This document shows positions 30,101 through 54,471 of a DNA stretch of 64,000 bases, in pieces (the first letter of the stretch is position 1; every line of letters begins with the position of its first letter). The notes under the pieces are model-generated. The model saw only the letters and a program-made list of their open reading frames with translations, had not been told where the DNA came from and ran no database searches. Position numbers and translations under genes: made by a program. This DNA comes from Caldisericia bacterium (lineage in GTDB: Bacteria; Caldisericota; Caldisericia; JAAYUI01): contig JAXGMQ010000001.1 in NCBI GenBank assembly GCA_040768585.1, positions 1,159,299 to 1,223,298 of the forward strand. Direction: 5' to 3'.

Positions 30101-33100
30101 AGCGGTCTTCTTCAGGTTCCAAGAGATGGCTCATACTACGATCCTTACTGGGAAACAGTCTACAGAGACCCAGAGAAACGTGCCTACGCCAACTATGCAA
30201 GGTATGTCTTCGATCCAGTCAATGATCCAAGGTATGATCTGTATGCAACACATTTCTCACACCTCGCCAACTCGTATGACTGCTACGGCAGATGGGAAAG
30301 AACGGTTCAGCCAGAGGATCTTGATATTCAGGCAAACAGAAAATGTCTCACCATCCTAGAGCAGAGATTCCCGAACCTCGTCCTTACGCTTACAAACTGG
30401 GACAACCCGAACGATATTAATGACCCGGCGGACATCAGATTCGCAACAGAGTCGATTCCAGATAGACCACACCGTGTGAACTACAACTGTCGTGGCGCTG
30501 GCGTTAAGTTCCTTTTCACTGCAAACAATACTGATTTCACCGAGAAGTACATTGTTCAGGTCAATGACGACGATACGTTCATCTGCTGGCAGTGGTTTGA
30601 TTATGAGCCACTCAACATGCTTTCACCACTCGACTACCTTATCTACAGAGACCTTGGTAACCCAGGTTGGCCGAGTTCACCGCAGCAGCCAGACCCAAGA
30701 AATTCCAGAGGTCCAGTCAATGACCCACCGCGTCTCCCAACAGATGCTGAGCCAGAATCAGAACTTGAGAGATGCTTTGTTGACGATGTGGACTGCTCTG
30801 GTAAGCAGGCAACCTGTGACATCTGTGGTATAGGTGGCGGCTCGATTGAGGACTTCGTACCGATCGGTTCAGTCACACTCAATGACACATATGGCAATAG
30901 CTACGTTGAATTCATCATCCAGACCTTCGGTGTTCCGACCATGGTCACCGACTACGGATACCTTTCAACAACAGATCCGGGCGGTCAGATGCTTGTTGCC
31001 GTCCTCCCAAGAGAAGCGGATACACCACTCTGGGTGCGTGTAACAGCTGAGCAGACGATATTCAACTTTAACAGTGTCGATGGGCAGCTTTGGCCACCAA
31101 ATGGCCCTGGATTCCTCAACGACTACACGGGTGGTGTGGATTATTGCGGACTTATCAGCTTTGATATTACCCCGCCGGACCCAGACGTGAACTTCACAGA
31201 AGTCACGATGGTCGACCACGCTCTCCAGTATTCGCAGGCCAACTACACTGTCGGTTCAGATTCAGATGGATATCACACCAACCCAGTCTCGCCGCTTGGT
31301 ATGCCGGCACCACAGATCCAGACACCGTACAATCCAATACTTAAAGACCTCACCGAAGAGGTAACCTGTTATCCAGGTGGACAGACTCATCCATTCAGAC
31401 TTGATGGTCCGAACTCCAAGAGGCGCTCAGGCTGGAATGCATATCCCGCAATCCACAGCGAGTGGTACAACGGAACAGATCACTCACAGTTTGTGAAGCT
31501 TGGAACAGAGTTCTTCCCACTTACCGACTATGGTCTGTACTTCATCTTGAAGAACCAGCGTGGTGAACACCTGTCCTTCTCTCCAATCCAGCACTGGGTC
31601 TCACCATATCCAATTAGGTACGATCTCATGATCAAGAGAGTCATTATCGAAGGACCGTTCATGAGACCGAAGTTTATGGATGCAGACAACTCGAACTATC
31701 TCTCCAACAACTACTACAATGGAACTGAGTATCCACCGATCGCTTATGACACGAGTGGTAGACTTGAGATCACAGACCTCAACGTCAACGCATTTGTGCA
31801 GAACTCGCTTTCCTACAGAGGTGGTGACTTCGCCAATGTCACAAGCCCATACATGACGGGTTCAGACCCAGTCAGAAACCAGCTTGTGTATCCAGATGAC
31901 ACCAACATCCCAGAGAATGACTATCTTAGACTACTTGACAGGTCACTTGACTTCACATCGCTTCACTTTGCCAACATTGGTAATAGACCATCTGGTGCCA
32001 ACGATGTCTTCTGTATCGACGAAATTATCCCAGTTAACTACGGAAACATCAGCATTACAGTCGAACTCCAGAATGGTAAGCGTAAGATTTACCAGGATTG
32101 CTGCGAGACAACACCAGTTGACGGCATCAATGTTTGGGGTCTTGATATCCAGGATGCTCCAGATGAAATCGTCGTTGACACAGAGAATGTCATTGAGATA
32201 GGACTTAGAGAATACAACGACATTCAGGTCGTCCAAGAGTGCAACGATGCCCTCGTGTTCTGCTGGCAGGATCGTGGCGTCAAGCAGATTGGATCAGACA
32301 TGAGAGTCGGTGCTGGTGATGGTTGGATTACAAACCCACCACGCAACAGCAACCTTCGAGATAAGGTTTGGCAGTATCTCACCGGCGATGATATCAATGG
32401 TGATGGCAAGATAACATTCAAGGACTTCGAGACTGAGATTCTTGGTACCTATGATATGACAACCAACACATGGCTTGCTGGTATCATTGACGCAAGAACG
32501 TATCAGAGGCAGGATGGAATCTACAGATTCGAGCTTAACGAAACAAATAATTGTATTGTTGACGAGATTGGATTTGACTTCGGTGGTGGTGAGCAGATAG
32601 GCGGAAGGTTCTCTTCAGCAGATCACATCATCAGCATCAACGAAGAACTTCCGATTTGGATTACAGCATACAAGTATGGTGATGACAATAACGACAGAAG
32701 CTTCCAGCCATACTATGAGATCCCACCACAGTCAGAGTTTGGTAAGCCAGGATTCTCACACGAAGTTTATATGGCTGCGCAGAAGTCCGTCAGGGTTGTT
32801 GGTTCGGAGGATCTTGTTGTAGAGATAACACCTGCTGTCCTCACAGCTGGTGTAACTCCTGAGTATGTCGATCCAGATGAGCCATTGACATTTACAGTGT
32901 ACCATCCAGATGGTGATACGAGATTCAACTTCTTTGAAGAAGGAGTACCGGACTACACTGGTGCTTACAAAATCAGAGAATGGGAACAGGTCGCAAACAA
33001 CCTGTTCGAGGATCCACATCCAGACAACAAGTATCACTATGGATATGATTCCGAGCTTCCGCAGTACTACTGGTTGAGAACAGACCTTCACAACAACGAT

Positions 33101-35971
33101 CCGACATCCAATGCAGAGGGAGTTGACAACCACAGACTATTCGCTTCAAGGATTACTGCGATTGACTTCATCGAGTACGACTTCAGCGGTGGTGAAGATG
33201 GTGTATACATCTTCAAGGGATTCTGTGCGAACGATGAGGGTAGTTTCCCGGTTATTATCTACTCACCAGACAGAAAGCATTACGCCAGAGAGACAGTCAA
33301 GATCAAACCACCAAAGGTGGAGTACAAGATCACAAACATCGACGATCCAGATCAGAGAGTGTTTGATCTACCAGGAACACCAGGCGATCCTGAGTTCCTC
33401 ATGACCGCTGCTGATAACAGAGTCTACAAAGTTGATATTACCTGCTACACGCATGACGGCGAGAAGCCACTTATCGGCGCTGCCAAGGGTGTATCAGTCT
33501 GCACAGGCTCAGACAGAGACAACGCAAGATTCACACCAGTCTACACAGCACCATCCTCGTTCCTTACTGGTGAGCCAAGATACGCCATTGGTACCAGAGG
33601 TGATTGGATGCCAGTTGATGGTCAGCCTCTTGGTCAGGATCAGATTTACACCCCACGTATCAGACCACGCCTTGGAATAGACTTTGATGCCGACGGTGTC
33701 GTTGAGGAGTCCAACAGAGAGGTTATCAGACCAACAGCATACACTCACAAAATAGCTCGCATATACATGACCTCATACTACTTCTACTACTTCCCAGGCG
33801 TACGATACCAAGCCACAGGTGGACTTGTTCCAAGCGTTTACTACAACACAAACAACTACGCCTACCCGGACAGATATGACGAAAAGAACTACTACAACCT
33901 GTTCATCTATGGTGATATCTACCCAGACCCAGATTCCACATTTGCTTGGGGACTTGGTGCCATCTATAACTCGTCCCATTACGGCGGATACCTCACAATT
34001 GACGTGAATGATGACGACTTCCTTACCTATGCAGACTCATTGTCACTCGATGAGAGAGGCTCGACCCAGGTCTACGTCTATGCTGAAGATCTTTGCTACT
34101 TCGCTGGCTTCATCGGCGACAACCCATGGACTAACACGAAGTGGGGAGATGTATACGGTGGAATTGACTCCTACCTGTCGAATGTTACAAGTGGATACAG
34201 TGATAGCTTCTATGGAGACCCACATGCTCCGAGAACGATGCAGAGAAGATATGGTTACAGACCACAGGGAGTGAATGTACCGACAGCTTATATTCCTGCT
34301 GCTGATGGCACGTTCAAACTTGACTGGGAGGCATTCCCAAGCAAGGATAACTACGCCAAGATTGAAGCTCCATTTGCGATCGCAAGATCTGCGGAGACAA
34401 GAGAACCATTTGGTCTTATGCTTATGAATCAGAACTGTTATGATCTGATCTATGCGAAAGAAAACCACATACTGTTCAACTTCTACCCAGCATTCTCGAG
34501 CGATCTGCCATTGGGTGAGGGTGCGAGAGTCGACCTTTTGATCTACACATGGGGTGGAACGGATCCAACAAGATCTTATGCGAGAACATACAAATCCGCA
34601 GAAGACCCAGCCGCGACGGAGTGCATGGCGCTTGTAAGGCCGACGGGTGTGGCGACGCGAATGCTCTCAATCGCTTACTACCAGGAGAACACAAGATTTA
34701 GGTTCCCATACGAGTACAGGATTGAAAGAGACCTCGAGAAGAGAAATATCCTTCCATCGTTCGACTCAGTCAGGGGGCTTGAGGTACTTGTTGACTCGGA
34801 AGATGTTCTTAGATCGCAGATCACAGGTACACTCAACATTACAGTCAGAGAGTATGGTTCCAACGCTCCGGCAGGTAACGCTGAGCTCAAGATTGAGGGC
34901 GCTGGTGTATCGCTTCCATCCAAGCGCTGCAACGACAAGGGTCAGGCATCGGTTGTTGTAACACCAACAGAGACTGGAATCATCAAGGTAACAGCAAGTC
35001 TCGAAGGATACGCTGATGGATTCGGTACCATAACGGTCGGCGTTGATACTCAACCGCCAACGGTAACAATTGAAGAACCAACCAACTACGCAGTTGTTGC
35101 TGGCAATTCGGTTGCGCTCAAGGGTGTAACAAAACCAGGTTCGAAGCTCACAGTCAATGGACAGCAGGTTGCAGTCAATCTTAAGGGTGAGTTTGAGTTC
35201 AACGTGAACCTTCAGAACGAGGGCGCTAACACAATCGTTGTCAAGGCAACGTCACCAACAGGCGCGACAACCGTCAGATACGTCACAGTCATCAGAGACA
35301 CTCAGGCTCCAAGCCTTATCATCAATGAGCCAACTGAGATTATTGCAAACGCAACATACTACGACGTCACAGGCAGAGTTGAGCCAGGCTCTAAGGTTAC
35401 AGTTAACGGTGTGGACGCGAAGGTCGTCTTCGATGTTTGGACTCACAGAGTTAACCTCGTCCCAGGCAAGAATGAAGTTGAAGTGACGGCAATCGATGCG
35501 GCAGGTAACACTGTCACCTCCAAGATTGTTCTTGTTAACTACAAGCTTGTGACAATCGAGCTTACCAAGGAAGTCACGACAGCCTACGTAAATGGTGAGA
35601 TGGTACAGCTGACAGCAGCTCCAAGACTCTCGATGGCATCAGGCACATTCATGGTGCCAGCGGGTGACCTCTTCGGTAGCCTCGAGGGCAATGTGGTTAA
35701 TGCCGGTGGCAACCTGTTCAACATTACGCTTGGTGCGAGCACCGCTTCGATTACGCAAGATGGAAAGACTGCCCAGGTCAATGGTGTGGCCAAAGCGCTT
35801 CCAGAAGCTCCGGCAAGAGACGTTGCAACCGGCCAGCTCATGGTGCCCGCAGCTGTCCTCCTTCAGTACATGAATGAGGGTTCAGCTGATGGTGACATTG
35901 AGCCAATACTTGACATCGAGTGGAACCCATCCGCTGGTAGAATGACAATCAGCAGATACTGGATACCATGA
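27149..35971 (+). CDS. Giant secreted protein (2940 aa), paralog 4 of the tandem family.
   Basis: RBS GAAGGAGAG. Signal peptide MRKILTTLLSVALVLGMISTFMPMLSLDNAEAQG. Shared motifs HRIGYDRYGREL, GQLWFDPDGRFNDCRY, NNTQGPY, YPGGQTH, IYQDCC, ECNDALVFCWQDRG, AYKYGDDNNDR and LPQYYWLRTDLHN. C-terminal Ig-like repeats and a CuAO-N1-like module (MVPAGDLFGSLEG...GQLMVPAAVLLQYM). Confidence 0.88.
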   Translation: MRKILTTLLSVALVLGMISTFMPMLSLDNAEAQGSGNTPATMVGNRFHRIGYDRYGRELPDGKMVPWQKVGEVWWGREGFYMPYAVRAVDDPPYSITVPPATAFYSTVVSNETSSHVATLGFGLWTEVWLTVDVDPGDGQTTYKHHWYVILDDYGQLWFDPDGRFNDCRYYGYADPYDVNYMEDDDYTHDNCTDNPRALVDPIVSNNTQGPYILDPDYNPFVNENASMWQFYSPSYALNNVAAPVYNPRIYFWDAEKTGYNTKRLWKLGFADMNDYLAENAVGPAGALCSGVVYEEAANPSNPLYKEYQDWDIDLSLRAFQLNYNPAQFAEAGSEVHAENITLGGNYPDSQVSWAAQAPVAYNFGEFAYRKAGADVMYPTLTGPGTYDTKPVSFVDEADIRLSDIVVTRNGDIRTYPPFTSVIDTGAIGVWEPGDDYDVGTSQWAFSDGVTGTFGRPEYYHDQAIGTNNGGNGGGDGVYSPGEFIYRKALANSGMTVQADDIRLTNVNGYQTNTNRHLPNNPDLLFDTDGMVRAGIMDGDLLIMAEVLNGGCQSPNYDIAVQTDAWIGWRDNGRWMPVEIGYTAAGIRSHFDTTINHFNRVQKNAMLSQNSDGFFVPSTVFHDVQFEERQFGGWSIWLDDGIDNNAAVNQMYACTALDLSDNLEGKETIEQIVGGESLEAWDFDYGRGGVRDDFGELVSFTDTAKVIGPPYGFYDTEGNGFGCHEHLYRDMDSSGAISKGDLRLTDVITYREVGPVSGSMIQYYAGTTVAAGDLDVGEPITYFNQPPQAGNIEFMFYDISHPADGVPRNYEYDPGEDIYLQPIGLTEVDYRSVRATDVEIQGKKYICGTAVSLSQALFVENPVSMISMGNNGLASFMDFEVIPGSIQVEVKVDQEFMVEQTSHVEVRVVPEPTDPDDKYYILIENLPRSSYNNIAETVRTIDRDHLVANFEITPYRGSCDLTGFVQDRKVYVHAIKEETDVSAYSGLLQVPRDGSYYDPYWETVYRDPEKRAYANYARYVFDPVNDPRYDLYATHFSHLANSYDCYGRWERTVQPEDLDIQANRKCLTILEQRFPNLVLTLTNWDNPNDINDPADIRFATESIPDRPHRVNYNCRGAGVKFLFTANNTDFTEKYIVQVNDDDTFICWQWFDYEPLNMLSPLDYLIYRDLGNPGWPSSPQQPDPRNSRGPVNDPPRLPTDAEPESELERCFVDDVDCSGKQATCDICGIGGGSIEDFVPIGSVTLNDTYGNSYVEFIIQTFGVPTMVTDYGYLSTTDPGGQMLVAVLPREADTPLWVRVTAEQTIFNFNSVDGQLWPPNGPGFLNDYTGGVDYCGLISFDITPPDPDVNFTEVTMVDHALQYSQANYTVGSDSDGYHTNPVSPLGMPAPQIQTPYNPILKDLTEEVTCYPGGQTHPFRLDGPNSKRRSGWNAYPAIHSEWYNGTDHSQFVKLGTEFFPLTDYGLYFILKNQRGEHLSFSPIQHWVSPYPIRYDLMIKRVIIEGPFMRPKFMDADNSNYLSNNYYNGTEYPPIAYDTSGRLEITDLNVNAFVQNSLSYRGGDFANVTSPYMTGSDPVRNQLVYPDDTNIPENDYLRLLDRSLDFTSLHFANIGNRPSGANDVFCIDEIIPVNYGNISITVELQNGKRKIYQDCCETTPVDGINVWGLDIQDAPDEIVVDTENVIEIGLREYNDIQVVQECNDALVFCWQDRGVKQIGSDMRVGAGDGWITNPPRNSNLRDKVWQYLTGDDINGDGKITFKDFETEILGTYDMTTNTWLAGIIDARTYQRQDGIYRFELNETNNCIVDEIGFDFGGGEQIGGRFSSADHIISINEELPIWITAYKYGDDNNDRSFQPYYEIPPQSEFGKPGFSHEVYMAAQKSVRVVGSEDLVVEITPAVLTAGVTPEYVDPDEPLTFTVYHPDGDTRFNFFEEGVPDYTGAYKIREWEQVANNLFEDPHPDNKYHYGYDSELPQYYWLRTDLHNNDPTSNAEGVDNHRLFASRITAIDFIEYDFSGGEDGVYIFKGFCANDEGSFPVIIYSPDRKHYARETVKIKPPKVEYKITNIDDPDQRVFDLPGTPGDPEFLMTAADNRVYKVDITCYTHDGEKPLIGAAKGVSVCTGSDRDNARFTPVYTAPSSFLTGEPRYAIGTRGDWMPVDGQPLGQDQIYTPRIRPRLGIDFDADGVVEESNREVIRPTAYTHKIARIYMTSYYFYYFPGVRYQATGGLVPSVYYNTNNYAYPDRYDEKNYYNLFIYGDIYPDPDSTFAWGLGAIYNSSHYGGYLTIDVNDDDFLTYADSLSLDERGSTQVYVYAEDLCYFAGFIGDNPWTNTKWGDVYGGIDSYLSNVTSGYSDSFYGDPHAPRTMQRRYGYRPQGVNVPTAYIPAADGTFKLDWEAFPSKDNYAKIEAPFAIARSAETREPFGLMLMNQNCYDLIYAKENHILFNFYPAFSSDLPLGEGARVDLLIYTWGGTDPTRSYARTYKSAEDPAATECMALVRPTGVATRMLSIAYYQENTRFRFPYEYRIERDLEKRNILPSFDSVRGLEVLVDSEDVLRSQITGTLNITVREYGSNAPAGNAELKIEGAGVSLPSKRCNDKGQASVVVTPTETGIIKVTASLEGYADGFGTITVGVDTQPPTVTIEEPTNYAVVAGNSVALKGVTKPGSKLTVNGQQVAVNLKGEFEFNVNLQNEGANTIVVKATSPTGATTVRYVTVIRDTQAPSLIINEPTEIIANATYYDVTGRVEPGSKVTVNGVDAKVVFDVWTHRVNLVPGKNEVEVTAIDAAGNTVTSKIVLVNYKLVTIELTKEVTTAYVNGEMVQLTAAPRLSMASGTFMVPAGDLFGSLEGNVVNAGGNLFNITLGASTASITQDGKTAQVNGVAKALPEAPARDVATGQLMVPAAVLLQYMNEGSADGDIEPILDIEWNPSAGRMTISRYWIP

Positions 35972-36037
35972 GGTAACTAGCAAGATTGAGGTGGAGCGAG
36001 TTTCTCTACCTTGAGCTTGGAAAGAAGAAATGACAAT

Positions 36038-36072
36038 CCCCCGAGTGAACTTATCGCTCGGGGGATTTTTTT
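36038..36072 (+). terminator. Canonical rho-independent terminator at the end of the giant-gene array.
   Basis: The 8-bp GC-rich stem CCCCCGAG (36038-36045) pairs with CTCGGGGG (36057-36064), separated by an 11-nt loop. A T7 run follows at 36066-36072, about 65 nt after the paralog 4 stop. Confidence 0.75.
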
Positions 36073-36987
36073 ATGTGAGAATGATTGTTGATTTTTACTA
36101 GATGAGCTTGAAGTGAATCCTTTTTTTACTTTCCAGTGTTGTGAGTTACTCAAGATGAGATATGATCCGTTCCCACAAATAACCACCGGGTCTAGAGAAT
36201 ATCGCTGTGAAGTAAGATATTGAAGTGGGAGGGTTGTAAATTCCTGTGTTTCCTCATCCCAGCAAGGCGGTGGGCACCAAAAGCGTTGTATCCAAGAGGA
36301 CAAAATTTTTGTGTTTGCCTTTGACTGATGTTTATTAAGTGAATAATCTCAAAACATTTTAGTACCGCCAAGCATAACTTCTATTGTTACCAAAGATTTG
36401 ATGATTCCGGTTCTACCAGGATAAGTAACCACAGAAGACACTTGTTGTAAACACAATTGGCTTTGATGGGTCTAGAGGTTTGAATGTTGTGTGAGGGGAT
36501 AGTTCGTGAACCAATGGGAGATTACTCATGATTGGAGTAGAATCTGGTGTGAGGAGTTCCGCAAGTTTTGTGAAAGCAGCATCTCTTCTTAAAATCCCAA
36601 GCAAAGCATGGTAGATACTTTTGCCTCCCACTCTCACATACCTATCTCAACTGGGACTAATTCAAGGTTGCTGGAAATGATGATGAGTTCACGAAGTTTT
36701 TTAAAAACTGCCCACCATGAAATAAACCACAAATTGCTCCAAATCACCTCCATTTTGTAAGCTTTCTCCAGAAAGATTCAATGCCACTCACACATTTTCT
36801 CCTTACGGACTTCCTTCGCCCTGAAGCAATCTTCATCCAATTCTACTTCATCCTTTAGTGGGCGATTTGCCCTCAAGTGGTTACAAAATCCTCTACTTCT
36901 GATTCCCCCTTAGGCATGTGGGGGCGATATACATATTTGTTTCCCTTTCCATTACTGACTATTTCAGATTGAGGAGATTAGGATAAC

Positions 36988-37022
36988 CAAAGCGCTTCAG
37001 TTGGTTACTGAAGTGCTTTGGG
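36988..37022. other. Strong 15-bp inverted repeat/hairpin (one G·U position, 5-nt loop) inside the non-coding stretch.
   Basis: CCAAAGCGCTTCAGT tggtt ACTGAAGTGCTTTGG, read directly from the sequence. No U-tract follows it. Confidence 0.4.
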
Positions 37023-37300
37023 TAGTGGGTATATAGTCTATCGAGAACCCCGCAAATTTATGAAGGGATTAGTCAACCTACAAACGGGAGACCACTCAAA
37101 CGACCAAACAGATGTCTTGCGGTGCTTTGATAATTGAGAACAATATAGAGCGAGGAGGGGGCATAAAAGTACTTTCCCGGATCCCAAAATTTGTAAGGGT
37201 CTAGATAGTTCACATTTTTGTTGAGTCTGAATGACGCTTCTTTAATTAACATTTTGTGCAGAATGAAAACTATAAACCAAAACAGCTTCAGATTGCGCAC

Positions 37301-37370
37301 GACCTCCTCACCCTTTCCCTCCCTCTCCCCCAAAGGGGGAGAGGAATTAGAGGGAGCTTCCTTTTTTCTA
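37301..37370. repeat. Polypyrimidine tract containing a perfect 10-bp hairpin (CCTCTCCCCC aaa GGGGGAGAGG), followed by a T6 run.
   Basis: CCTCCTCACCCTTTCCCTCCCTCTCCCCCAAAGGGGGAGAGGAATTAGAGGGAGCTTCCTTTTTTCT. A second similar tract, CACTCCCCTCTCCC...GGGGCAGGGGCG, lies at about 37455-37500. Confidence 0.4.
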
Positions 37371-37723
37371 AGGAATAGTTAGCAGACAAAAGAGGATTTT
37401 CTTACCTCTGTTAATATTACGCTCCCCTTTCTGAAAGTTGATATTTGGCACACGCACTCCCCTCTCCCTTATAATTGTAAGTGAAAGGGGCAGGGGCGAA
37501 GGTGATTGTTGATAATCATTTCTGAAACAAAAGCCTAAAAATTGGTCAATGAAAAGAAAACAACTCAAACTCAGAAATACACAACAGACTTTAGGTCTAA
37601 TAGTTTACTGTCTCTAACATCGAGCAATCTCTGTTAAAAAAGTTGAACTTGTAGGGAATGGGGACTAGGAAAAGTTATTGATTGGTAAGGTCTGAGTTGG
37701 TAAGAGCCTTCATAAATTGTTTG

Positions 37724-39283
37724 CTATTCTCTTGATTCGCCAAAATTATTACGTACGACAAAAACATCGTTCAGGTCGATGATACCGTTGTTATCGAAGT
37801 CGCACTCAAGTTTGAATCCTGGGTTGAAAGAACGCTTCCCGAGGTGTGTGGCAATAATGATGAGATCTGTCCCATCAACCCTACAGTCGAGGTTGCAGTC
37901 ACCCATAATCTGTTTGATAAAAAAGTTGATCCCAAGTTTGTACCTGTAGTTAGGAGTGTCGACGACTATTTCACCAAAGTCCTGGAGTGACAATACGCCC
38001 TTTGAATTGACACTAACGGCGACCGTCTCGGTGTACCCTGGATAGACGACAATCTCTCTTTTGTCGGTTGAGGTGTTTCTGGCGTAGGTGTGCACTCTGG
38101 CAGATATGGGAGAGCTTCCGAGATTGACTAGTCTAATCTCCCGAGTGTAAATCTTCTCAGGGCAGATGATTCCGAAATTCAAATCGCAGGATATTCCGAG
38201 GTAAAGTCCAAAAGGTGATGTTGAATATCTGATGAGTTTGGGGCCGCATGTCACATAGAAATCTGCTTTGTGAGGAACAGCCTGTGAAGTAATATCGCCT
38301 GGTGTGTTTATGGCGTTGTATGCGGAACCAGTGGATTTCTGGACCGGGATTATCTGGCTATTTCTGGTGCAACAGAGGATGATTCTTCCGCACACAGAAA
38401 TATTTGTTGGAGAGAGAGTTTTATTCATCCACGATGTGTCACCTTCGATGCTTTTGCAGAGAATCCCGCTATCGCTCCCAAAGAGGTAGACCCACTTGCA
38501 GTCAGTCACTGCCCCTTTGTTCTTTCCCGTCGGGGTTTTATCACTCCAGAGTTGTCTACAGTCCTCCACCGCAAGCGCAATGCATCCGCCCCTTTCAAGA
38601 ACAGCCACAAACGAGTTGTCGCTTATGGATGTAACACTCTCCACAAAACCAACCGTGGCGCTAGAGCATACAAGCTCCAGAGATTCTGCATCAAAGACGT
38701 GTACTCGCATGTCTCTGCAAGCGATGACCACCCGATTTCCGACAACCGTTGGGGCAGAAACTGGCTCATCAGGGAGTTCCCCGCTCGATTGTATGATGCC
38801 ATTTGTGTCTGCCCTGTAGATATGTGATTTGCTGTTGATGAATAGAGACCTGTCGGATGCCAAGAGACTCTGTGGGTCATCAACCTCGACATTCCACACG
38901 ACTGAATCGCTCGAGATTCTTCTTGCTGTTATTTCCTTGCCATCGAAGGAGATGAAAAGATCATTGAATATGACAGGCACACATGGGCCAGTTATCTTGA
39001 ATGTTCCCAGCTCCTCTTTGGAGTTGGTATGGAACACAACCGCCTCGTTGGCGCATATCGTAAAAATATAATCATTTGATGTCAGAATGTGGTGCCCCTG
39101 AGAGATAGTAACCTCCCAATTGGACAGATAGGGAGGGTGGACAGTCTGGGCACAATATGCCTGTCTACCACTGTTGCCGCCCACATTTGGCCAGAGGCAT
39201 ACGGCCTCCGAGCCACCTAAAACGGCGACACCGAGTGACACAATCAACAGTGCTAGAAGATAAGCTGTAAGTGCCTTCTTCAT
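37724..39283 (-). CDS. Secreted beta-propeller (PQQ-like repeat) protein with a C-terminal type-I dockerin domain.
   Basis: Signal peptide MKKALTAYLLALLIVSLGVAVLGG. The C-terminus has two EF-hand-like dockerin repeats about 33 aa apart: DCNLDCRVDGTDLIIIATHL and DFDNNGIIDLNDVFVVRNNF. The central region has a repeated beta-strand pattern. It is transcribed divergently from the ECF sigma gene. Confidence 0.7.
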   Translation of the reverse strand: MKKALTAYLLALLIVSLGVAVLGGSEAVCLWPNVGGNSGRQAYCAQTVHPPYLSNWEVTISQGHHILTSNDYIFTICANEAVVFHTNSKEELGTFKITGPCVPVIFNDLFISFDGKEITARRISSDSVVWNVEVDDPQSLLASDRSLFINSKSHIYRADTNGIIQSSGELPDEPVSAPTVVGNRVVIACRDMRVHVFDAESLELVCSSATVGFVESVTSISDNSFVAVLERGGCIALAVEDCRQLWSDKTPTGKNKGAVTDCKWVYLFGSDSGILCKSIEGDTSWMNKTLSPTNISVCGRIILCCTRNSQIIPVQKSTGSAYNAINTPGDITSQAVPHKADFYVTCGPKLIRYSTSPFGLYLGISCDLNFGIICPEKIYTREIRLVNLGSSPISARVHTYARNTSTDKREIVVYPGYTETVAVSVNSKGVLSLQDFGEIVVDTPNYRYKLGINFFIKQIMGDCNLDCRVDGTDLIIIATHLGKRSFNPGFKLECDFDNNGIIDLNDVFVVRNNFGESRE

Positions 39284-39408
39284 TTATCCACATTATTTAT
39301 CCTATTTATTGTATTGTCAATCCTCTATTTCTCAGCCTTTTTTGCAATTCTCTAATAATTTCATTAAAATGGTCTGATACTACTTGGTGAACCAGGGGTG
39401 GTGGTTGG

Positions 39409-40044
39409 GTGTATTTTACCCGAAGTTCGAGCACAAGCCCTTTTGTTTCGCTAACCTTGGGACAGATGGATAGGAAAACAGAAAAGAAAACGATTCTAGC
39501 GGCGCAGAAGGGTGACGCCGAAGCCTTCGAGAAGCTTTACAATGCATTCAAGCTGGAGTTGTACAGATCAGCGCTGCTCATTATGAAACATCCCGCCGAT
39601 GCTGAGGATGCCGTTGCTGAGACCTTCATCAAGACATTCAGGGCGATCGACAGGTTTGACACGAAGTATCCAATGAGACCTTGGTTACATCGGATACTTC
39701 GGAATGAGTGCAACAACATCTTCAAAAAGAAGAGAACAAAGACTGTACTGTACGACGACTTTGGCACAGATTGGAAAGAGTCAGTGGCTGATAGAGACTC
39801 GAAATGCACATCGACGCTCATCATTGAGGACGAGGAGGATTCGAGACTCATGGAACTCATCGATTCGATGAACGATAGCCACAGAGAGGTTCTGATTCTC
39901 CACTACTACGACGGACTCGATCTAATTAAAATCGCTGAAATCATCGGTGTCCCCATCGGTACCGTGAAGTCGCGACTCTTCCACGCCAGAAAACAGCTTT
40001 TGAAGTCTATCGAAGAGAATGAAGTGATATTGGATAGAGATTGA
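39409..40044 (+). CDS. ECF-family RNA polymerase sigma-70 factor.
   Basis: Region 2 (AFEKLYNAFKLELYRSALLIMKHPADAEDAVAETFIKTFRAIDRFD...RPWLHRILRNECNNIFKK) and region 4 (REVLILHYYDGLDLIKIAEIIGVPIGTVKSRLFHARKQL) are both recognisable. The ORF begins at a GTG at 39409. An in-frame ATG at 39466 (MDRKTEKK...) is an alternative start. Confidence 0.85.
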   Translation: MYFTRSSSTSPFVSLTLGQMDRKTEKKTILAAQKGDAEAFEKLYNAFKLELYRSALLIMKHPADAEDAVAETFIKTFRAIDRFDTKYPMRPWLHRILRNECNNIFKKKRTKTVLYDDFGTDWKESVADRDSKCTSTLIIEDEEDSRLMELIDSMNDSHREVLILHYYDGLDLIKIAEIIGVPIGTVKSRLFHARKQLLKSIEENEVILDRD

Positions 40045-40064: not shown

Positions 40065-42326
40065 ATGAGACACCTAACTACAGAACAGATTGCCGCCTAC
40101 CAGGCAGGAGGGATGAGAGCAAGCGAAAAGTTTTTCGCCTTCATCCACCTGCTTGTTTGCGGCGAGTGCAGGGCTGCTCTGAAAAAAGAGAAGAGACTTT
40201 TCAAGAGCACAAACACGAAACTCAAGCGAATTACGAGCCACAGCTTCCCGACAAACCTGATGGATGCGAGAGTGGGAGCAGTCATCTCACAGATAGCTGC
40301 TAACACTGCTCCGCAGGTGAGGTTTTTTGGCAAGTGGGCGACGGTGGCAGCGCTTGTTGTGGTGATGCTTGCGTCATCCTACTCGGTATTCTTCTTTGCC
40401 CCGATCGTGGGAGCAGCGAGAGAGACCCCTGCCCAGGCGTTTGTATCGTCAAAAATAATTCCAATCTACAACGAGATTGGCAACGTGGTTCCTGACATGT
40501 CAGACATCGCGAAGAAAGAGGTGTTCTTCAGGGCGATGTGCGACACACTGATGATTTGCACATCAGAGAGAATAAAGTGGATGTACAGCGAAGGTTACAC
40601 CCTGGAGGAGGTGTATTTCGCAAGTGTGGTGGCAAGGGTTATCGGCGCATCGACAGAATCGGTGCTGCCTCTTCTCAAGCAGGACAAGACGTGGGGGCAG
40701 ATTTTCTCCGAACTCAACATTCCTTTTTCACAGCAACTTGAGATAGAAGAGGGTGTCAAGCAAACAATCAAACAGACTGAGACCGCTATGGACAATCAGA
40801 AAACCTTCTCCGTTCCAGTCCGAAAAAATACCGATGGCTCAATCTCATCGGTTGTTGATATTCCTGAGGATGTCGCCAAAAAAATTCCGGAAGGCAAAGA
40901 GGCGACCGTCGAGATCGATAGAACCGGCAAGCCAACCGGCAACGTTGAGGTGCTTGAGAGACCGACTTACTACACCGGCAACATCGTATCAGTTGAATCA
41001 GGTTATGAGATTTTCACAGTGGATACCGAGAACGGCGATACCGTCACAGTCAGGGTCACACCTGAGACAAACATGAGACGCTATGGAGACTACTTCTTCA
41101 GAACAGAGCTTCGACAGAATCAGCTCTGCGTAGTCAATGGCGTCTGGAGTGAGGGCGTTCTATTCGCTGATTTTGTCGATATCAAAGAGCCTATCAGAAG
41201 CACAAATTTTGAGGGTGTTGTTATTGATATGGACGGTTCGTCAATCACAGTCACAGGATTTGGTGCTCCTCTTAAAAAGAATGAAAACTCAAACATAACA
41301 GGCACGCTTGAGATAGGCTCAAAGGTTGAATTTACGGCCTTTGGCAATGACTATGATGGCTTCCAGATAGAGTGGATGAAGGCTTCACCGAAGATTCAGC
41401 CCACTCCTACTCCCGCTCAACCCAGGGCGACTGTCGAAGGGATTGTTGTGGGCATCGATGAGATCGAGAAGCTTATCCTTCTTGATGACGGCACATCGAT
41501 TTTCTACAACAAGCTGACAGAATTTGCTGGAGGAATGCCCTGGGTTGGCTCTGTTATCGCCAGCGAGGCGTATGAGGTAAACACCAACCTTGATAACAAG
41601 TTCCAAGATCAGGCAATCAAAATCACGATATCAGCACCGAAGACAACGGATACCTTTGAGTATGCAAAGAAGCTTGACTCAATCGTGTGTCTGAGTGGGT
41701 GTAACTGGATACGACCAGAGGGTGTCACGAGAATCACCCTTGAGGGTGTTGATACTTCGTTCCTCATCATCCCGGATACGGTCGGTCATGATCAGGTGAC
41801 TCCAAACCGCAAGGGTTATCTGCTTATCCTTTCAGGCAACACGGTTGATGGCGTAAACATGATAACAAAGGTGAGTGTTGTTGACCCGAAGAGCATAGTC
41901 GTAAAGAGTGGCGTCATCGTCTCACACGAGGGCATGAAGGTGAAACTCGACGACGGTACAGAGATAACACTCAGGTCATTCACCGCAGGCGCAACCGGGG
42001 TTGCAAAGGACGCGAAGGCAGAGTTCAGGTGCTGGCAGACAGAAGGCAAACTCACAGCGCTTGAGGTGACACTGGTCGAGGAGACAAAGAAAACCATCGA
42101 GACTCCCTGGACAAGTGTTGTCTCCTTTGATGGAACAAAGCTTGTTCTTGAGGAAGGTCTGGTTGTTGAATTTGATGAGAACACAGTGGTTGTGACAGCC
42201 GTCCTCAAGGAAGAGATCGACTCATCCCAGATAACGATGGGTTCTAGGGTAATCTGCGTGTACACCGATAATGGTGACGGTAGAAAGATTGCCGTAAAGG
42301 TGATGGTATACATACAGGCTCCATGA
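40065..42326 (+). CDS. Anti-sigma factor. N-terminal ZAS-type zinc-finger motif, one TM helix, and a large (~650 aa) extracytoplasmic beta-rich domain.
   Basis: It immediately follows, and slightly overlaps, the sigma gene. FIHLLVCGECRAAL fits the HxxxCxxC anti-sigma motif. TM segment WATVAALVVVMLASSYSVFFFAPIVGAA. The likely start is the ATG at 40065 (MRHLTTEQ) after GAGAGACAGGGAAT; the ORF track begins at an in-frame TTG at 40041. Confidence 0.7.
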   Translation: MRHLTTEQIAAYQAGGMRASEKFFAFIHLLVCGECRAALKKEKRLFKSTNTKLKRITSHSFPTNLMDARVGAVISQIAANTAPQVRFFGKWATVAALVVVMLASSYSVFFFAPIVGAARETPAQAFVSSKIIPIYNEIGNVVPDMSDIAKKEVFFRAMCDTLMICTSERIKWMYSEGYTLEEVYFASVVARVIGASTESVLPLLKQDKTWGQIFSELNIPFSQQLEIEEGVKQTIKQTETAMDNQKTFSVPVRKNTDGSISSVVDIPEDVAKKIPEGKEATVEIDRTGKPTGNVEVLERPTYYTGNIVSVESGYEIFTVDTENGDTVTVRVTPETNMRRYGDYFFRTELRQNQLCVVNGVWSEGVLFADFVDIKEPIRSTNFEGVVIDMDGSSITVTGFGAPLKKNENSNITGTLEIGSKVEFTAFGNDYDGFQIEWMKASPKIQPTPTPAQPRATVEGIVVGIDEIEKLILLDDGTSIFYNKLTEFAGGMPWVGSVIASEAYEVNTNLDNKFQDQAIKITISAPKTTDTFEYAKKLDSIVCLSGCNWIRPEGVTRITLEGVDTSFLIIPDTVGHDQVTPNRKGYLLILSGNTVDGVNMITKVSVVDPKSIVVKSGVIVSHEGMKVKLDDGTEITLRSFTAGATGVAKDAKAEFRCWQTEGKLTALEVTLVEETKKTIETPWTSVVSFDGTKLVLEEGLVVEFDENTVVVTAVLKEEIDSSQITMGSRVICVYTDNGDGRKIAVKVMVYIQAP

Positions 42327-44290
42327 AAAAAATACTAGCTGCTGCTATTGCTCTCTCACTGGTTGTGCCGACTCTCGCAGTTGGCGCGACCAGTTTGAAT
42401 ATTGAGGTCAACCCCTCGCTAGCCACACTTGGCTGCGAGGTAAAAATCACTGCAACACTTGATGAACCCGCTCCTGAGGCGGCAAAGGTTGAGGTGAGAT
42501 TTCCCGTGGTCATGAAGGTGCCAGGGAAGATTGATGGTGGACTGATAACGGTCAATGAAATGCCTGTTGACACCATCACTGTTGAGAAGAATGTCCTTAC
42601 CTTTGATATCCCAGAACCAATTGAAGACCACGCGAATCTAGAAATTCTCATCCCAACGGCGTGTGGCATTGCAAACCCGTTTGAGGGTGGCAGCTATGTG
42701 ATAGAAATTGACATCGATGGAGTCAGACAAAGAACCAAGTTTGAGGTGGGCAGAATACTTGAAGAATCCCCAATAGTTGTGTTGTCCCCTGACCTTGCCG
42801 GAAAACCCGTCAACCTCATGGTACAGATTCCAGCATCAGAACACCTTCAGCTAGTGCAAGGTGATGCCGTTAAGATAACGCTTCCTGCGGAATTTATTAT
42901 GCCAGAGCTTCCTGACCTTGAGTATGTCACACTCTCTGGCGAGACGCCCCCAGTTGTTGATATGGATGGTAACACCCTCACGGTTGTCGTGGGCTCAGAT
43001 TTACCCATAAATAAGCCTATCACGCTCATTTTTGGAACAGAATTTGGTTTGGTACTTCCCCTCTGGCCGGACACCTACAAGCTAAATTTGGAGATTCCTG
43101 GCAAGCTAGAGGAGACATCGACTGATCTCTTCCAGGTGAGACCACTTAAACCAACTGTTTATGCCTCGGTTGATCCGCCGGAGCCTGAGAACAAGTGGTA
43201 CACGAAACCCCCAACGATCGAACTTCTCAGCGAGGTTGAGAGAGATATCTACTACAATTGGAACTACGAAAGAAAAACCCTTTACGCCGAGAGTTTTACC
43301 GCTCCAGAGGGTGTCAATAACCTCACTTATGTCGGCAGGATAAAAGATGGTGGCTGGGAGGCTGTTTTGACCCGCACCTTCAGGGTTGACTCAAACCCGC
43401 CAATTGTCGGTGATGTGGTGCGTTTCACCAATAAAGCTGAACTAGACTTAATATACAACATCATCGATGTGTCTCCCTGCGAGTCTGGGATTGATGGCTA
43501 TGAAACCGAGTCTCTTGGTGACAACAAATTCAGGACAACCCTTGAGCTTGCGCCTGGCGACAACAGCTTTGTTTTCTGGGCGGTTGACTCGTGCGGCAGA
43601 AAGGTCGAGACCCCCAAAACCATCACACTCGATAACACTCCACCAGCCCTTGATATACTCTCCCCGTCGTCTGGATCGGTCATATGTGGAAGGATAGTTA
43701 GAATTAACGGAGTAACAGAGCCAGGGGCGAAGATTACTGTCGATGGTTCAAACATCCAGGTCGACTCATCGGGCTATTTTATCGCTGTTGTTTCGCCAAC
43801 TGAGGAAGGTCCGGTCAATATAAAGGTTGTATCTCAGGATTTGGCAGGCAACACCCAAGAAGCAGTGCTGCCAATCCTCTATATTTCGGGGACTTCCATC
43901 TCGATGACAATCGGGAAGAAAGACGCTGTTTTTGCCGGAGTTGAAAAGAAGCTTCTAGTTGCTCCATACAAGGACTTTGATGTCACCTACATTCCAGCCC
44001 CAACTCTTCTTAAAGCTCTCAATTACGAGCTTGTCAAAGAGGAGACTGGGGATGGCTGGATGATAAAAGACCTTGTCGGGGATGAGAGGATGTATCTGTC
44101 TCCAGGCGATGTGAACATAGTCAGACAGGGAAGTTCCGGTGCATTCGAGATAAGTTTGTCAAACGCCCCTCAGCTTTCTGAGGATGTTTTGTGCGTACCC
44201 CTGGAATTCACGACGAAAATATTGGATTTGAACCCAAGTGAGTTTGCGGGTGGAGAAATAGTCATAAAATTCTGTCCCAGAGGGGAATAA
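42323..44290 (+). CDS. Secreted protein with Ig-like/beta-sandwich repeats; function unknown.
   Basis: Its ATG overlaps the anti-sigma stop (ATGA), which suggests translational coupling. Signal peptide MKKILAAAIALSLVVPTLAVGAT. Invasin/Ig-like segments are present, for example PPALDILSPSSGSVICGRIVRINGVTEPGAKITVDG. Confidence 0.7.
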   Translation: MKKILAAAIALSLVVPTLAVGATSLNIEVNPSLATLGCEVKITATLDEPAPEAAKVEVRFPVVMKVPGKIDGGLITVNEMPVDTITVEKNVLTFDIPEPIEDHANLEILIPTACGIANPFEGGSYVIEIDIDGVRQRTKFEVGRILEESPIVVLSPDLAGKPVNLMVQIPASEHLQLVQGDAVKITLPAEFIMPELPDLEYVTLSGETPPVVDMDGNTLTVVVGSDLPINKPITLIFGTEFGLVLPLWPDTYKLNLEIPGKLEETSTDLFQVRPLKPTVYASVDPPEPENKWYTKPPTIELLSEVERDIYYNWNYERKTLYAESFTAPEGVNNLTYVGRIKDGGWEAVLTRTFRVDSNPPIVGDVVRFTNKAELDLIYNIIDVSPCESGIDGYETESLGDNKFRTTLELAPGDNSFVFWAVDSCGRKVETPKTITLDNTPPALDILSPSSGSVICGRIVRINGVTEPGAKITVDGSNIQVDSSGYFIAVVSPTEEGPVNIKVVSQDLAGNTQEAVLPILYISGTSISMTIGKKDAVFAGVEKKLLVAPYKDFDVTYIPAPTLLKALNYELVKEETGDGWMIKDLVGDERMYLSPGDVNIVRQGSSGAFEISLSNAPQLSEDVLCVPLEFTTKILDLNPSEFAGGEIVIKFCPRGE

Positions 44291-44294
44291 GATT

Positions 44295-47200: not shown

Positions 47201-47477
47201 TGCGATGATACCGCTTCGATTTTTGGCTGAGGCTTTTGACGCGGATGTGGGTTGGGACGAAAAAACTTCGGAAATAACAATCACCGTTGGTGATAAGGTG
47301 ATAGTTGTGAGAGTCGGCAACAGGATAGCAATTGTTGATGGGGAAGTGGTGGAGATGCCAGTTACCCCTGAGATTAAATCGGGCGCGACATTTGTTCCAC
47401 TGCGGTTTATCACCGAATCGTTCGGTTGCCAGCTGGAAGTTGTTGGCAAAAAAATAACAATCACATACAATAAATAG
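44295..47477 (+). CDS. Secreted protein with 5 or more tandem ~125-aa Cys-containing beta-sandwich modules, Ig-like repeats, and two C-terminal CuAO-N1-like modules.
   Basis: RBS AGAGGGGAA. Signal peptide MKRFVAPLLAAVFFFAGVSVSKA. Modules of the form VNG(R/V)P...I..PE.P recur. The C-terminus MIPLRFLAEAFDADVGWDEKTSEITITVGDKVIVVRVGNRIAIVDGEVVEM...ATFVPLRFITESFGCQLEV matches the copper amine oxidase N-terminal-like domain pattern. Confidence 0.75.
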   Translation: MKRFVAPLLAAVFFFAGVSVSKAVCKVDVYSVDVNPAVSLAKACYTVSFHIECAMVEGETFEVHLPRDSETPYGCRTCDVNIDGDYKHRYDVEGNVVRIQLTRGLSAGRHYFHICNVTNPSSKGPHVVSIVSSAGVFTSRPFNFADTAISIPKVEVNPDYVKACAEYEITFKTSSDASTGCGCSRRTVIYVTFPKNFVFPYDIDPQFVLVNGRPADSVGIIDKTLVITSSSKFVAGQTIKIKILKGAGVINPETPGWYSLNVYTSDDRISINSERFYIRPSTVTRAKVTLDDPYTCSKSGFVVEFMTGPYGQIKKGSKIELILPPSFDVPDFIPAENLSVNDMPVMSESSIKSNNIDGWSQIAVLSPVDIGSESKVVIIVLPGAMIALPDTPSYDYSIDVRTATEPNRVPSLPFSVDRSRLRNVKLTATPSYVSLPAVIQVAFRLGGCGDLTSGIDTITVQFDELFWFPDSKLMTDIKINGVPVDRLVMVSGKQITISPPNDIPGDEWVTVEFGEGCGIRNPSKAGEPQKVKVWTTRERDASVSNIILFATTKISGVAVSLSKPQTGKYSSCDITFVSGSAGALKAGSQLLLRFPEGFDFKGPVSTHTILVNETRCRRVRLTENTLELTTGLDIEAGTQVGVSVSSDANLRLPDEPSYYQIEVATEAEPEFVLSQRFPIADKIQFEYKVTPDEPDGIDEWYVTHPTVELRAFNSLDEFAQIELDINFDVRPYNGSFEIDDGFTVIKAVATDKFGNVSEPLVLSFDVDTNPPTFEPESGTVYSRAMYHSEIVEIDELNDVEIEYDETEGVTVERQRVAELVKVSCKVETEQTKTVEITATDEAGNSNTWERIVVFDWTEPMLELPDRITTDESEITISGKTESGASVVCDDEIIICDDEGNFTHTVSVSDGFSRFFFTAKDRAGNSSTKVLAVEANLQIVVVLTIGETAATINDVPTEIGSNPVYLSSGNAMIPLRFLAEAFDADVGWDEKTSEITITVGDKVIVVRVGNRIAIVDGEVVEMPVTPEIKSGATFVPLRFITESFGCQLEVVGKKITITYNK

Positions 47478-49439: not shown

Positions 49440-49485
49440 GGTAATGTGGATGAAAGACACATTACCCAAAAAAAGAAGTGGAGGT

Positions 49486-50406: not shown

Positions 50407-50546
50407 TCCACTGAGAGTAGTACTTTCAATCAGCACCAGCTCGCAAACCTTGACCCGATGACGGGAGAGTAAGGGTAGAGACTTATCAAGTCGATGCCCC
50501 ACCAGATAAATATCAATCCTAGAATCAGTTCAGGATAATGTGCATT

Positions 50547-52094: not shown

Positions 52095-52237
52095 ACCTAG
52101 CACCCCCTCTCTTGAAGATATTCTAAGACAGCAGGGCAACAGTAGACAAACAAGATTGGCGTCAGATTCCGTTAAATATGAATCAATCTGTGACATGAAA
52201 ACTGGAAAACTTTCCAACAATGACTAAAATCATCCTC

Positions 52238-52738: not shown

Positions 52739-52844
52739 AGATTTCCTGTAATACTTTCATAGAATGTGTGAACAAAATGATTTGGGAGCATCCCAAATGA
52801 GATAAATAGCTTAGTTTGTGGATTCGAATATTTGGAGGTAGAAA

Positions 52845-53312: not shown

Positions 53313-53384
53313 TGTGTAACATTATGTTGTGAATTCATAGATATATTGAATTTTGATTTGTGTACAAATACCAGGAGGTGAGGT

Positions 53385-53873: not shown

Positions 53874-53893
53874 GAATAGAAAGGGAATAGTCT

Positions 53894-54370: not shown

Positions 54371-54471
54371 CTCGACAAAACCTTACTATGACACATTCAG
54401 CACACCCTTTAACATAAGGTATCTTGACGGTTAACAAGACTTGACTAAAATTTTTTGTCAAGGAGATAGAG

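Follow-up and report, generated by a model that had tools for sequence, protein, structure and literature searches.

In a Caldisericia genome, the gap that separates a giant surface-protein gene from a converging dockerin gene is, we are inclined to think, a truly non-coding, lineage-specific spacer between two transcription units. The best reading is a fast-evolving spacer that is non-functional or serves termination only. The gap holds no recognisable gene, pseudogene, IS or known RNA. It is mostly ordinary; besides a usual terminator and an orphan hairpin, it contains two decayed copies of a bacterial repeat that is already known. Coordinates refer to the window, the whole 64-kb stretch of DNA analysed.

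Extent and coding content of the gap

35972–37723, no strand: gene-free gap between the convergent giant surface-protein gene (+) and the beta-propeller/dockerin gene (−), from the ORF map
36530–36601, minus strand: HEAT-like segment HALLGILRRDAAFTKLAELLTPDSTPI within a 74-aa ORF called by some pipelines, weakly similar to one HEAT-like repeat

The left border of the gap is the stop of a 2940-aa ORF (27149–35971, +), and the right border is the stop of the 519-aa dockerin ORF (37724–39283, −). The ORF map confirmed the stretch as gene-free, and at 1752 bp it is the widest gap between long ORFs in the 64 kb (next 712 bp, others 101–209 bp). A gap of 1.75 kb is unusual in a dense genome, which is a point against reading it as a spacer or scar. 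The longest ORFs inside it encode 108, 86, 74 and 66 aa, matching the frames of 60–110 aa described in the sequence-only reading. The best-of-six-frame dicodon score stayed almost throughout below 0.29, the 5th percentile of real genes, with a sole marginal window at about 36600 (score 0.34). Dicodon scores, six-frame Pfam/NCBIfam comparison and protein searches agree with the earlier judgement that no ORF is convincing.

The GC content of the gap (0.407) is typical of the other intergenic gaps (0.33–0.45), and this native-like value suggests long residence in the host genome. The gap had also been called low in complexity. This holds for local patches, namely the T-runs at 36065–36130, a 21-nt pyrimidine tract at 37311–37331 and an A-rich patch at 37520–37600, but not for the entire gap, whose zlib compressibility deviates from the window mean by about 1 sd. 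Hairpins are concentrated here: the window has four of 11 or more pairs with no more than one mismatch, and three of them sit in the gap, which makes up 2.7% of the window; shuffled sequences gave 0.7 per window. The gap showed no similarity to the remainder of the 64-kb window.

Homology searches were blank. Six-frame translations had no match in Pfam or NCBIfam (E ≤ 1), and a concatenated six-frame query had none among 5.8 billion proteins (E ≤ 10). The tblastn search with all 21 window proteins gave only noise (best E 0.08), and blastn against plasmid and phage collections found no match. Neither terminal inverted repeats nor a target duplication were found, and the long-range inverted repeats are merely 71–77% complementary. 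The IS and transposase comparison proposed by the sequence-only reading returned no fragments in the six-frame profile and protein searches or in the plasmid and phage collections; the gap carries neither recognisable transposase fragments nor the terminal inverted repeats of an IS element or transposase pseudogene. The proposed decayed mobile element or pseudogene therefore found no support in profile, protein, neighbour-protein or plasmid/phage searches. The tRNA/tmRNA search was negative. A replication origin or terminus was rejected, with one DnaA-box-like site (1 mismatch) and no GC-skew switch.

For the 74-aa ORF, the exhaustive HMMER search returned, besides the ORF itself, only repeat proteins, which were matched via multiple stretches (E 1.6e-6 to 7.6e-4). 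Two of the three matches are evidently translated tandem repeats, and the third is a HEAT-repeat protein. The translation of 36530–36601 (−) gave 25 bits in single-pair BLASTP and no Pfam HEAT match, and no further collinear HEAT-like repeats were found in any frame of the gap. We judged the likeness to a HEAT repeat to be due to chance, as it is a single segment of 24–27 aa with an E-value inflated by repeats, no Pfam match and no collinear neighbours.

These data bear on the idea that the gap is a gene or mobile element eroded past recognition, such as a minus-strand HEAT-repeat gene, which we regard as unlikely. The length of the gap, the several ORFs of 60–108 aa (mainly on the minus strand) and the faint HEAT-like segment would fit such a remnant, and the orphan hairpin described below could have served the lost gene. 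Against it stand the blank profile and protein searches, the absence of residual coding periodicity, the isolated, repeat-inflated HEAT-like match and the lack of terminal inverted repeats or a target duplication.

Terminator, orphan hairpin and the dockerin flank

36035–36073, plus strand: intrinsic (Rho-independent) terminator of the 2940-aa gene, from terminator scan and fold
36987–37021, no strand: isolated 15-bp hairpin CCAAAGCGCTTCAGT-TGGTT-ACTGAAGTGCTTTGG, from fold, with a single occurrence in the window

A standard intrinsic terminator, at 36035–36073, serves the giant surface-protein gene. It starts 64 nt past the stop codon, and its stem (36035–36067) has 14 pairs, including 8 G-C pairs, followed by TTTTTTT. 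The fold has a dG of −25.7 and a z of −5.8 (sliding-window z −7.4). This canonical feature is absent from the sequence-only reading. The weak Rfam matches His_leader, NsiR1 and sodF in the gap are the terminator hairpin itself.

The near-perfect 15-bp hairpin noticed earlier at 36988–37022 was recovered one base away, at 36987–37021. It consists of 14 Watson-Crick pairs and one G.T (dG −25.2), with z of −5.9 on the plus strand and −7.7 on the minus strand. The G.T means that full pairing is available only to a plus-strand RNA. The stem is terminator-like (A3...T3) and no T-run follows, so it resembles the stem of a Rho-independent terminator whose T-run was lost or absent. A scan of the metagenome collection, which excluded the window's own locus, found the stem core as bidirectional terminators on unrelated contigs with no shared flanks. 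REP/BIME-type intergenic palindromes are repeated, whereas this hairpin shows no sign of repetition; it is single in the window, and in the metagenome collection its stem core occurs only in those unrelated terminators, and we rejected it as a dispersed or REP repeat.

The organism occurs in anaerobic-digester samples, for example those of the studies behind SRR5007151, SRR5007228 and JGI 3300009775-9779. About 12 further contigs of the species, each assembled from other samples, carry the gap with no more than 1 SNP and are 99.98–100% identical. Since the flanks are as clonal as the gap, this identity is uninformative either way, covariation included. Conservation, which had been suggested as a check, was compared with the only usable diverged relative, a 2-kb contig (L005) with 80% amino acid identity in the dockerin gene and 231 bp of 3′ flank; this relative is contained in SRR11241203. 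The nucleotide homology to the window (78%) runs across the dockerin gene and ends exactly at the stop codon, and the 231-bp 3′ flank of L005 had no match in the whole window. The 5′ flank, on the promoter side, is 93–100% identical. The compared right-hand 231 bp of the gap are thus unconserved in one diverged relative, which argues against a conserved ncRNA. Close relatives of the giant protein's C-terminus that come with flanking sequence were not found.

At the dockerin end, the 230 nt after the stop contain no terminator or significant structure (z −0.9). The earlier suggestion of a regulatory spacer that insulates the convergent units is partly supported, by the strong terminator of the giant gene at the left end; the dockerin gene has none that is evident. 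The gap could instead be an extended 3′ UTR or a regulatory tail belonging to the dockerin gene, whose transcript would continue as far as the reverse side of the 36035–36067 hairpin. The unstructured 230 nt would agree with this, and the A-run on the far side of that stem could allow it to act bidirectionally. Yet 1.65 kb would be exceptional for a bacterial 3′ UTR, and L005 has a different 3′ flank with its own hairpin and T7 run about 150–175 nt past the stop. We consider such a tail very improbable.

CT/GA hairpins in the right third of the gap

37305–37345, minus strand: copy A, degenerate BoxC / TM_ECO-like intrastrand triplex motif, a near-match to the published blocks
37311–37331, minus strand: G-quadruplex motif GGGGGAGAGGGAGGGAAAGGG inside copy A, pattern (G3+N1-7)3G3+
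37315–37369, plus strand: extended hairpin 37315–37356 followed by CTTCCTTTTTTCT, from fold (dG −30.4)
37460–37508, plus strand: copy B, inverted relative to copy A and more strongly decayed, with hairpin 37459–37496

Judged by their sequence, the CT/GA hairpins appear as degenerate inverted copies of the BoxC / PIT / TM_ECO class of G/C-rich intrastrand triplex repeats, a class that the sequence-only reading did not recognise. The published TM_ECO pattern is 5′-CCCTCNCCC N3-6 GGGNGAGGG N3 GGGNGAGGG, with one mismatched triplet allowed (Holder et al. 2015, NAR, PMC4666352). Near-matches in the 64 kb were found only at 37305–37345 and 37460–37508, and there were none in 20 shuffles. Copies A (−) and B (+) are both intergenic and inverted, and lie 114 nt apart.

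On the minus strand, copy A reads TCCTCTCCC (37345–37337), loop CCTTTGG, GGGAGAGGG (37329–37321), spacer AGGGAAA and GGGTGAGGA (37313–37305). It has 2 mismatches at the 24 specified positions of the TM_ECO blocks with loops of 7 and 7, and fails the strict pattern because these loops are too long. When the loop lengths follow the published pattern, the best alignment uses GGGAAAGGG as the third block and contains 3 mismatches. The core of copy A is the CCTCTCCCCC-AAA-GGGGGAGAGG hairpin already seen within the CT-rich tract; it was located at 37322–37344, is fully Watson-Crick paired and is the sole perfect hairpin of at least 10 bp in the 64 kb. The G-quadruplex motif is the only match to its pattern on either strand of the window, and its plus-strand reading, 21 nt long, exceeds every other homopyrimidine tract of the window. 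All 15 G/C-rich candidates that the triplex scan found in the 64 kb fall within 37303–37356. The candidate at 37324–37356 (+), with 8-nt stems, loops of 3 and 6 nt and 1 mismatch, conforms to the ITxF triplex rules, and a 10-nt-stem candidate at 37303–37344 (−) has a second loop of 9 nt, outside the ITxF loop limit.

The second similar tract reported near 37455–37500 corresponds to the weaker hairpin of copy B at 37459–37496 (dG −19.5; z −1.8 on plus, −2.4 on minus). Its first block, CCCTCTCCC, is followed by a loop of 18 nt, GGGGCAGGG, a GCGA spacer of 4 nt and AGGTGATTG. Copy B has 4 mismatches at the 24 positions and needs loops of 12–18 and 4; it conforms to no triplex rule. The block CCCTCTCCC occurs twice in the 64-kb window, in copy B and in copy A.

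The hairpin and tail at 37315–37369 (+) may form a terminator-like configuration, as modelled from the fold; the consensus terminator scan did not call it. This arrangement enters into the idea that the gap encodes at least one novel lineage-specific structured RNA (an sRNA or cis-acting RNA), for example a plus-strand transcript that uses hairpin 36987–37021 and ends at the 37315–37369 hairpin and its T-rich tail. The local structure (z −4.7 around 36940–37059 and −3.8 around 37300–37419), the fold of the 226-nt segment 37285–37510 (z −3.6 on plus), the G.T in the 15-bp stem, which favours the plus strand, and the terminator-like tail after 37315–37356 speak for it. However, Rfam gave no match at the gathering score, the promoter scan of the gap found 3 promoter-like sites against 3.5 expected and so did not exceed chance, the right-hand part of the gap is unconserved in L005, and a known DNA repeat class accounts for the structure at 37300–37500. 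The structured ncRNA proposed earlier is thus unsupported, and we hold it to be quite unlikely.

We return to the spacer as the preferred reading. At its left end the giant surface-protein gene has its intrinsic terminator, the solitary terminator-like hairpin lies near its centre, and its right third contains an inverted pair of decayed G/C-rich repeats of the BoxC / PIT / TM_ECO type, one copy of which also has G-quadruplex potential. The bulk of the DNA would have no sequence-specific function and may be what an earlier rearrangement or the loss of a gene left behind at a variable locus. At most, the hairpins would stop transcription or insulate the converging units from each other. The triplex- and G4-capable repeats may mark, and perhaps promote, local instability, as has been reported of TM_ECO loci in E. 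coli, and the gap may be the scar of a rearrangement, with triplex-type repeats as its marks. PIT elements had neither promoter nor terminator activity according to work cited in PMC4666352, so an insulator role for the gap repeats is speculative. More far-reaching proposals, either a Caldisericia-specific structured-RNA gene built on hairpins 36987–37021 and 37315–37496 or a triplex/G4-driven recombination hot spot, seem improbable to us. If the hot spot were real, it would promote turnover of the adjacent giant surface-protein gene family and the dockerin cassette.

Comparison with known RNAs and repeat classes

The Rfam comparison suggested earlier matched no family at the gathering score in the whole 64-kb window, and at a permissive E-value the gap gave only sub-threshold, hairpin-level matches. 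One of them was whalefall-1 (RF01762), which scored 19.4 bits where the gathering score is 37; E was 0.07 when 2.1 kb were searched and 0.01 when 301 nt were. Its consensus has a UCUCUCC/GGAGAGA hairpin and later AGGGUGAGGAC, and the window has UCUCCCC/GGGGAGA and then AGGGUGAGGAG, but the spacer is 9 nt in the window and 24 nt in RF01762. Canonical TM elements of other genomes did not match the whalefall-1 model (E ≤ 0.1). We therefore dropped the equation of whalefall-1 with the TM motif, and the likeness of the window to whalefall-1 is a resemblance only.

The ITxF rules describe stems of 6–15 nt, loops of 1–6 nt, at most one mismatch for stems of at least 7 nt, and G.G:C, A.A:T and T.A:T triads; candidates with 7–8-nt stems arise by chance in scrambled genomes too (PMC4666352). 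The sequence TCTCCCCC-AAA-GGGGGAGA-GGAATT-AGAGGGAG at 37324–37356 (+) fits these rules with 8-nt stems, under a definition that is purely formal.

BoxC / PIT elements were earlier studied by Bachellier and by Maher, as cited in PMC4666352. TM_ECO/BoxC elements are always intergenic, often form inverted pairs and are tied to variable loci; E. coli K-12 has 5 loci with inverted TM_ECO pairs, the pairs facing inward, and TM_ECO loci in E. coli were reported to be linked to local genomic variability (PMC4666352). In our genome-collection scan, the architecture of a hairpin plus GGGTGAGG was found in at least 120 stretches from dozens of phyla, with a very regular layout of a 3-nt loop and a 4-nt GYYR spacer; the matches listed come from outside the Caldisericia. 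Inverted pairs occurred at 22 of 120 loci from other genomes, among the matches listed. A stop-free-frame test for the intergenic placement of matches elsewhere was uninformative in GC-rich genomes.

The gap copies share with TM_ECO/BoxC the one-strand three-block design, with a pyrimidine arm CC(C)TCTCCC, a purine partner GGGAGAGGG and a third G-rich block GGGTGAGG(G). They also share the intergenic site, two nearby inverted copies, placement at a locus where the nearest relative has different DNA, and G4 potential on the G-rich strand. In contrast, their loops are 7 and 7 (A) and 18 and 4 (B) rather than the published 3–6 and 3, their blocks carry 2–4 mismatches, and copy B forms no triplex by the ITxF rules. 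The E. coli K-12 pairs face inward, whereas the gap pair faces outward (<- ->). The host also differs, being a member of the Caldisericia with surrounding DNA of 41% GC and no further copy in 64 kb.

The pseudogene, IS and known-ncRNA readings of the gap are thereby removed. Its hairpins come down to one terminator and to copies, now decayed, of a repeat that is very widespread and had been described before; alone, the finding matters little. BoxC/TM-type elements have been characterised mainly in Proteobacteria and Cyanobacteria, and they leave traces in the intergenic DNA (41% GC) of a Caldisericia genome too. Here again, such an element occupies a site at which this genome and its nearest relative differ, which is consistent with the reported link between the motif and genomic variability (PMC4666352).

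Position and coding potential of the gap

The gap (35972–37723) is bordered by the stop codons of two convergent genes of an uncultured Caldisericia bacterium from anaerobic digesters, and it therefore lies downstream of both.

27149–35971, + strand: 2940-aa ORF, stop codon at the left border of the gap
37724–39283, − strand: 519-aa ORF, stop codon at the right border of the gap

The C-terminus of the 2940-aa ORF carries Glucodextran_B and Cu_amine_oxidN1 domains; a PQQ-like beta-propeller and a type I dockerin are encoded by the 519-aa ORF. At 1752 bp, the gap exceeds every other gene-free stretch in the window; the next longest, at 55102–55813, is 712 bp (GC 0.43), and the remaining gaps are 101–209 bp. 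The gap has a GC content of 0.407 and the genes on either side about 0.48; within the gap GC is uniform from end to end, and it is the same as in the other intergenic gaps (0.33–0.45). The zlib compressibility of the whole gap was normal. The low complexity described in the sequence-only reading applies to local patches and not to the gap as a whole.

The longest ORFs within the gap were 108, 86, 74, and 66 aa. The dicodon score, trained on the long genes of the window and taken as the best of six frames, stayed under the 5th percentile for true genes except in one marginal 150-nt window near 36600. Six-frame translations had no match in Pfam or NCBIfam at E ≤ 1, and a concatenated six-frame query had no match among 5.8 billion proteins at E ≤ 10. 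The plasmid and phage collections gave no blastn match. ORF lengths, dicodon score, and profile, protein, and nucleotide searches thus all agree that the gap is non-coding, as first read. The same searches gave nothing for the decayed mobile element or pseudogene also proposed then, and no decayed paralogue of any neighbouring protein was found in the gap. A gene or mobile element eroded past recognition is unlikely.

One ORF within the gap is called by some pipelines.

36413–36637, − strand: 74-aa ORF

Besides itself, exhaustive HMMER matched it only to three repeat proteins, via multiple stretches. Two were evidently translated tandem repeats; the third was a HEAT-repeat protein (one 24–27-aa segment, 25 bits). 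Pfam HEAT gave no support and no further collinear HEAT-like repeats were found nearby in any frame, and the likeness was taken as chance.

Five giant ORFs (947–3465 aa) lie in succession at 56–35971, four of them ending in the Glucodextran_B and Cu_amine_oxidN1 module, and two more proteins with these domains are encoded at 42323–47477. They form a tandem surface-protein family adjoining an ECF sigma factor. Two same-strand giant ORFs, of 947 aa (16223–19066, without Pfam domain) and 2661 aa (18990–26975, with the C-terminal module), overlap by 77 nt and may be parts of a single 3600-aa gene, interrupted by a frameshift that is either genuine or due to the assembly. At 49000–64000, GC falls from about 0.48 to 0.35–0.42, GC skew is strongly positive, and a gene from about 49444 carries Mrr_cat / NA-iREase1 restriction-endonuclease domains; this region may be a foreign island.

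Structured elements within the gap

The gap is structured beyond chance, locally. Sliding 120-nt folds gave z < −3 only at 35980–36139, 36940–37099, and 37260–37419. Four hairpins in the window have 11 or more pairs and no more than one mismatch, and three of them were inside the gap; shuffles gave 0.7 per window.

36035–36073, + strand: intrinsic terminator, 14-pair G+C-rich stem followed by T7
36987–37021, no strand assigned: 15-bp hairpin including one G.T
37345–37305, − strand: copy A, TCCTCTCCC-CCTTTGG-GGGAGAGGG-AGGGAAA-GGGTGAGGA
37460–37508, opposite to copy A: copy B, CCCTCTCCC, 18-nt loop, GGGGCAGGG, GCGA, AGGTGATTG

The first is a standard intrinsic terminator, beginning 64 nt past the stop of the giant 2940-aa gene. 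Weak Rfam matches to leader and sRNA families there were merely the terminator hairpin.

Because of its G.T, the 15-bp hairpin pairs fully only as + strand RNA. It occurs once in the window. Its stem core matched 117 stretches in metagenome contigs, mostly A-run/stem/T-run bidirectional terminators of unrelated organisms (51 were one gut locus), and no flanks were common to the hairpin and these matches. For these reasons it looks like a terminator stem minus its T-run, and a dispersed repeat found no supporting evidence.

The polypyrimidine hairpins of the sequence-only reading were both seen, and are read here as a probable degenerate inverted pair of the BoxC/PIT/TM_ECO type, a G/C-rich intrastrand triplex motif. 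Copy A had 2 mismatches in the 24 specified positions of the published TM_ECO pattern, but needed loops of 7 and 7; held to the published loops, its best match had 3. Copy B had 4 mismatches and is more decayed. Neither shuffles nor the rest of the window gave a comparable near-match. We re-implemented the ITxF triplex rules for the whole window. All 15 G/C-rich candidates fell at 37303–37356, and one, 37324–37356 (+), is within the published ITxF limits. The window has a single canonical G4 motif, at 37311–37331 (−).

Copy A resembles Rfam whalefall-1 in the hairpin plus AGGGUGAGGA. It reached 19.4 bits, short of the gathering score (37), and canonical TM loci of other genomes did not match the model; the likeness is taken as no more than a resemblance.

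Comparison with a diverged relative

About 12 contigs, drawn from various samples and MAGs, carry this locus at 99.98–100% identity, each with a gap of 1752 bp; they are clonal and hence uninformative on conservation. In L001–L004 and L126–L133 (ENA, Logan, JGI, NCBI; many independent samples and MAGs), the 10–21-kb locus was 99.98–100% identical, and the species population is remarkably clonal.

Among 5.8 billion proteins, one diverged relative of the dockerin protein was found (80% identity), on the 2-kb Logan contig L005. Nucleotide homology (78%) spans the dockerin gene and breaks off right at the stop codon. On the 3′ side of this stop, L005 has 231 bp that match nothing in the window and carry their own hairpin and T7 run, so the right edge of the gap, at least, is not conserved against this relative. 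A novel lineage-specific RNA seems improbable; that the gap is an extremely long dockerin 3′ UTR is highly improbable.

The 5′ flank, which faces the divergent ECF sigma gene (39284–39491 vs. L005 1–209) and covers the dockerin promoter side and the start of that sigma gene, is 93% identical overall, with long perfect runs. This mosaic of a near-identical 5′ side, diverged coding region, and unrelated 3′ flank suggests that the dockerin gene was recombined, or replaced in the manner of a cassette.

The triplex motif across bacteria and the nature of the gap

One genome per species was scanned with CCTCTCCC-N3-15-GGGAGAGG-N2-14-GGGTGAGG, and at least 120 stretches matched (L006–L125). Among the matches listed were Proteobacteria, Chloroflexota, Planctomycetota, Acidobacteriota, Verrucomicrobiota, Cyanobacteria, Actinomycetota, Myxococcota, and others. 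The layout in these listed matches was strikingly regular, with a 3-nt loop in 73 and a 4-nt GYYR spacer in 93 of 158 copies, and all three blocks reached 9 nt when bases flanking the scan pattern were counted. The motif is non-coding, 33 nt long, and nearly invariant across very distant phyla (consensus CCCTCTCCC-n3-GGGAGAGGG-yyr-GGGTGAGGG). In a sub-variant (L020 minus-strand copy, L042, L068, L120), a 13–14-nt spacer between the second and third G-blocks folds into its own small GAAG-loop hairpin, e.g., GTGCCCGAAGGGC or TCGCGCGAAGCGC. Pseudomonas crudilactis (L016) has four motifs within 520 bp (233–755) and, a few kb away (2918–6631), two C4 antisense RNA / c4-a1b1 pairs of a type known from P1/P7-like phages.

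Searching the literature for the two G-blocks identified the motif as BoxC/PIT/TM_ECO, 5′-CCCTCNCCC N3-6 GGGNGAGGG N3 GGGNGAGGG (Holder et al. 2015, PMC4666352). In vitro, TM_ECO folds into a stable purine-motif intrastrand triplex; it is intergenic in every case in E. coli, is common as inverted pairs, is associated with variable or rearranged loci, and was reported in 262 proteobacterial genomes (PMC4666352). Earlier BoxC/PIT work, as cited there, found promoter or terminator activity absent. Another paper interprets the element as a G-quadruplex/hairpin/duplex switch.

On balance, we favour reading the gap as a fast-evolving, non-coding spacer where two genes converge. Its parts would be an ordinary terminator, a terminator-like hairpin that stands alone, a pair of decayed BoxC/TM-type repeats in inverted orientation, and anonymous DNA; the latter may be long resident in the genome, consistent with its native-like composition. 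Rearrangement or gene loss probably left the spacer behind, and the agreement with the instability reported for TM loci is suggestive. Neither the terminator nor the repeat class is new, and the gap is ordinary and for the most part accounted for; novelty is confined to the host lineage and to the degenerate form, with long loops, of the BoxC/TM-type repeat.
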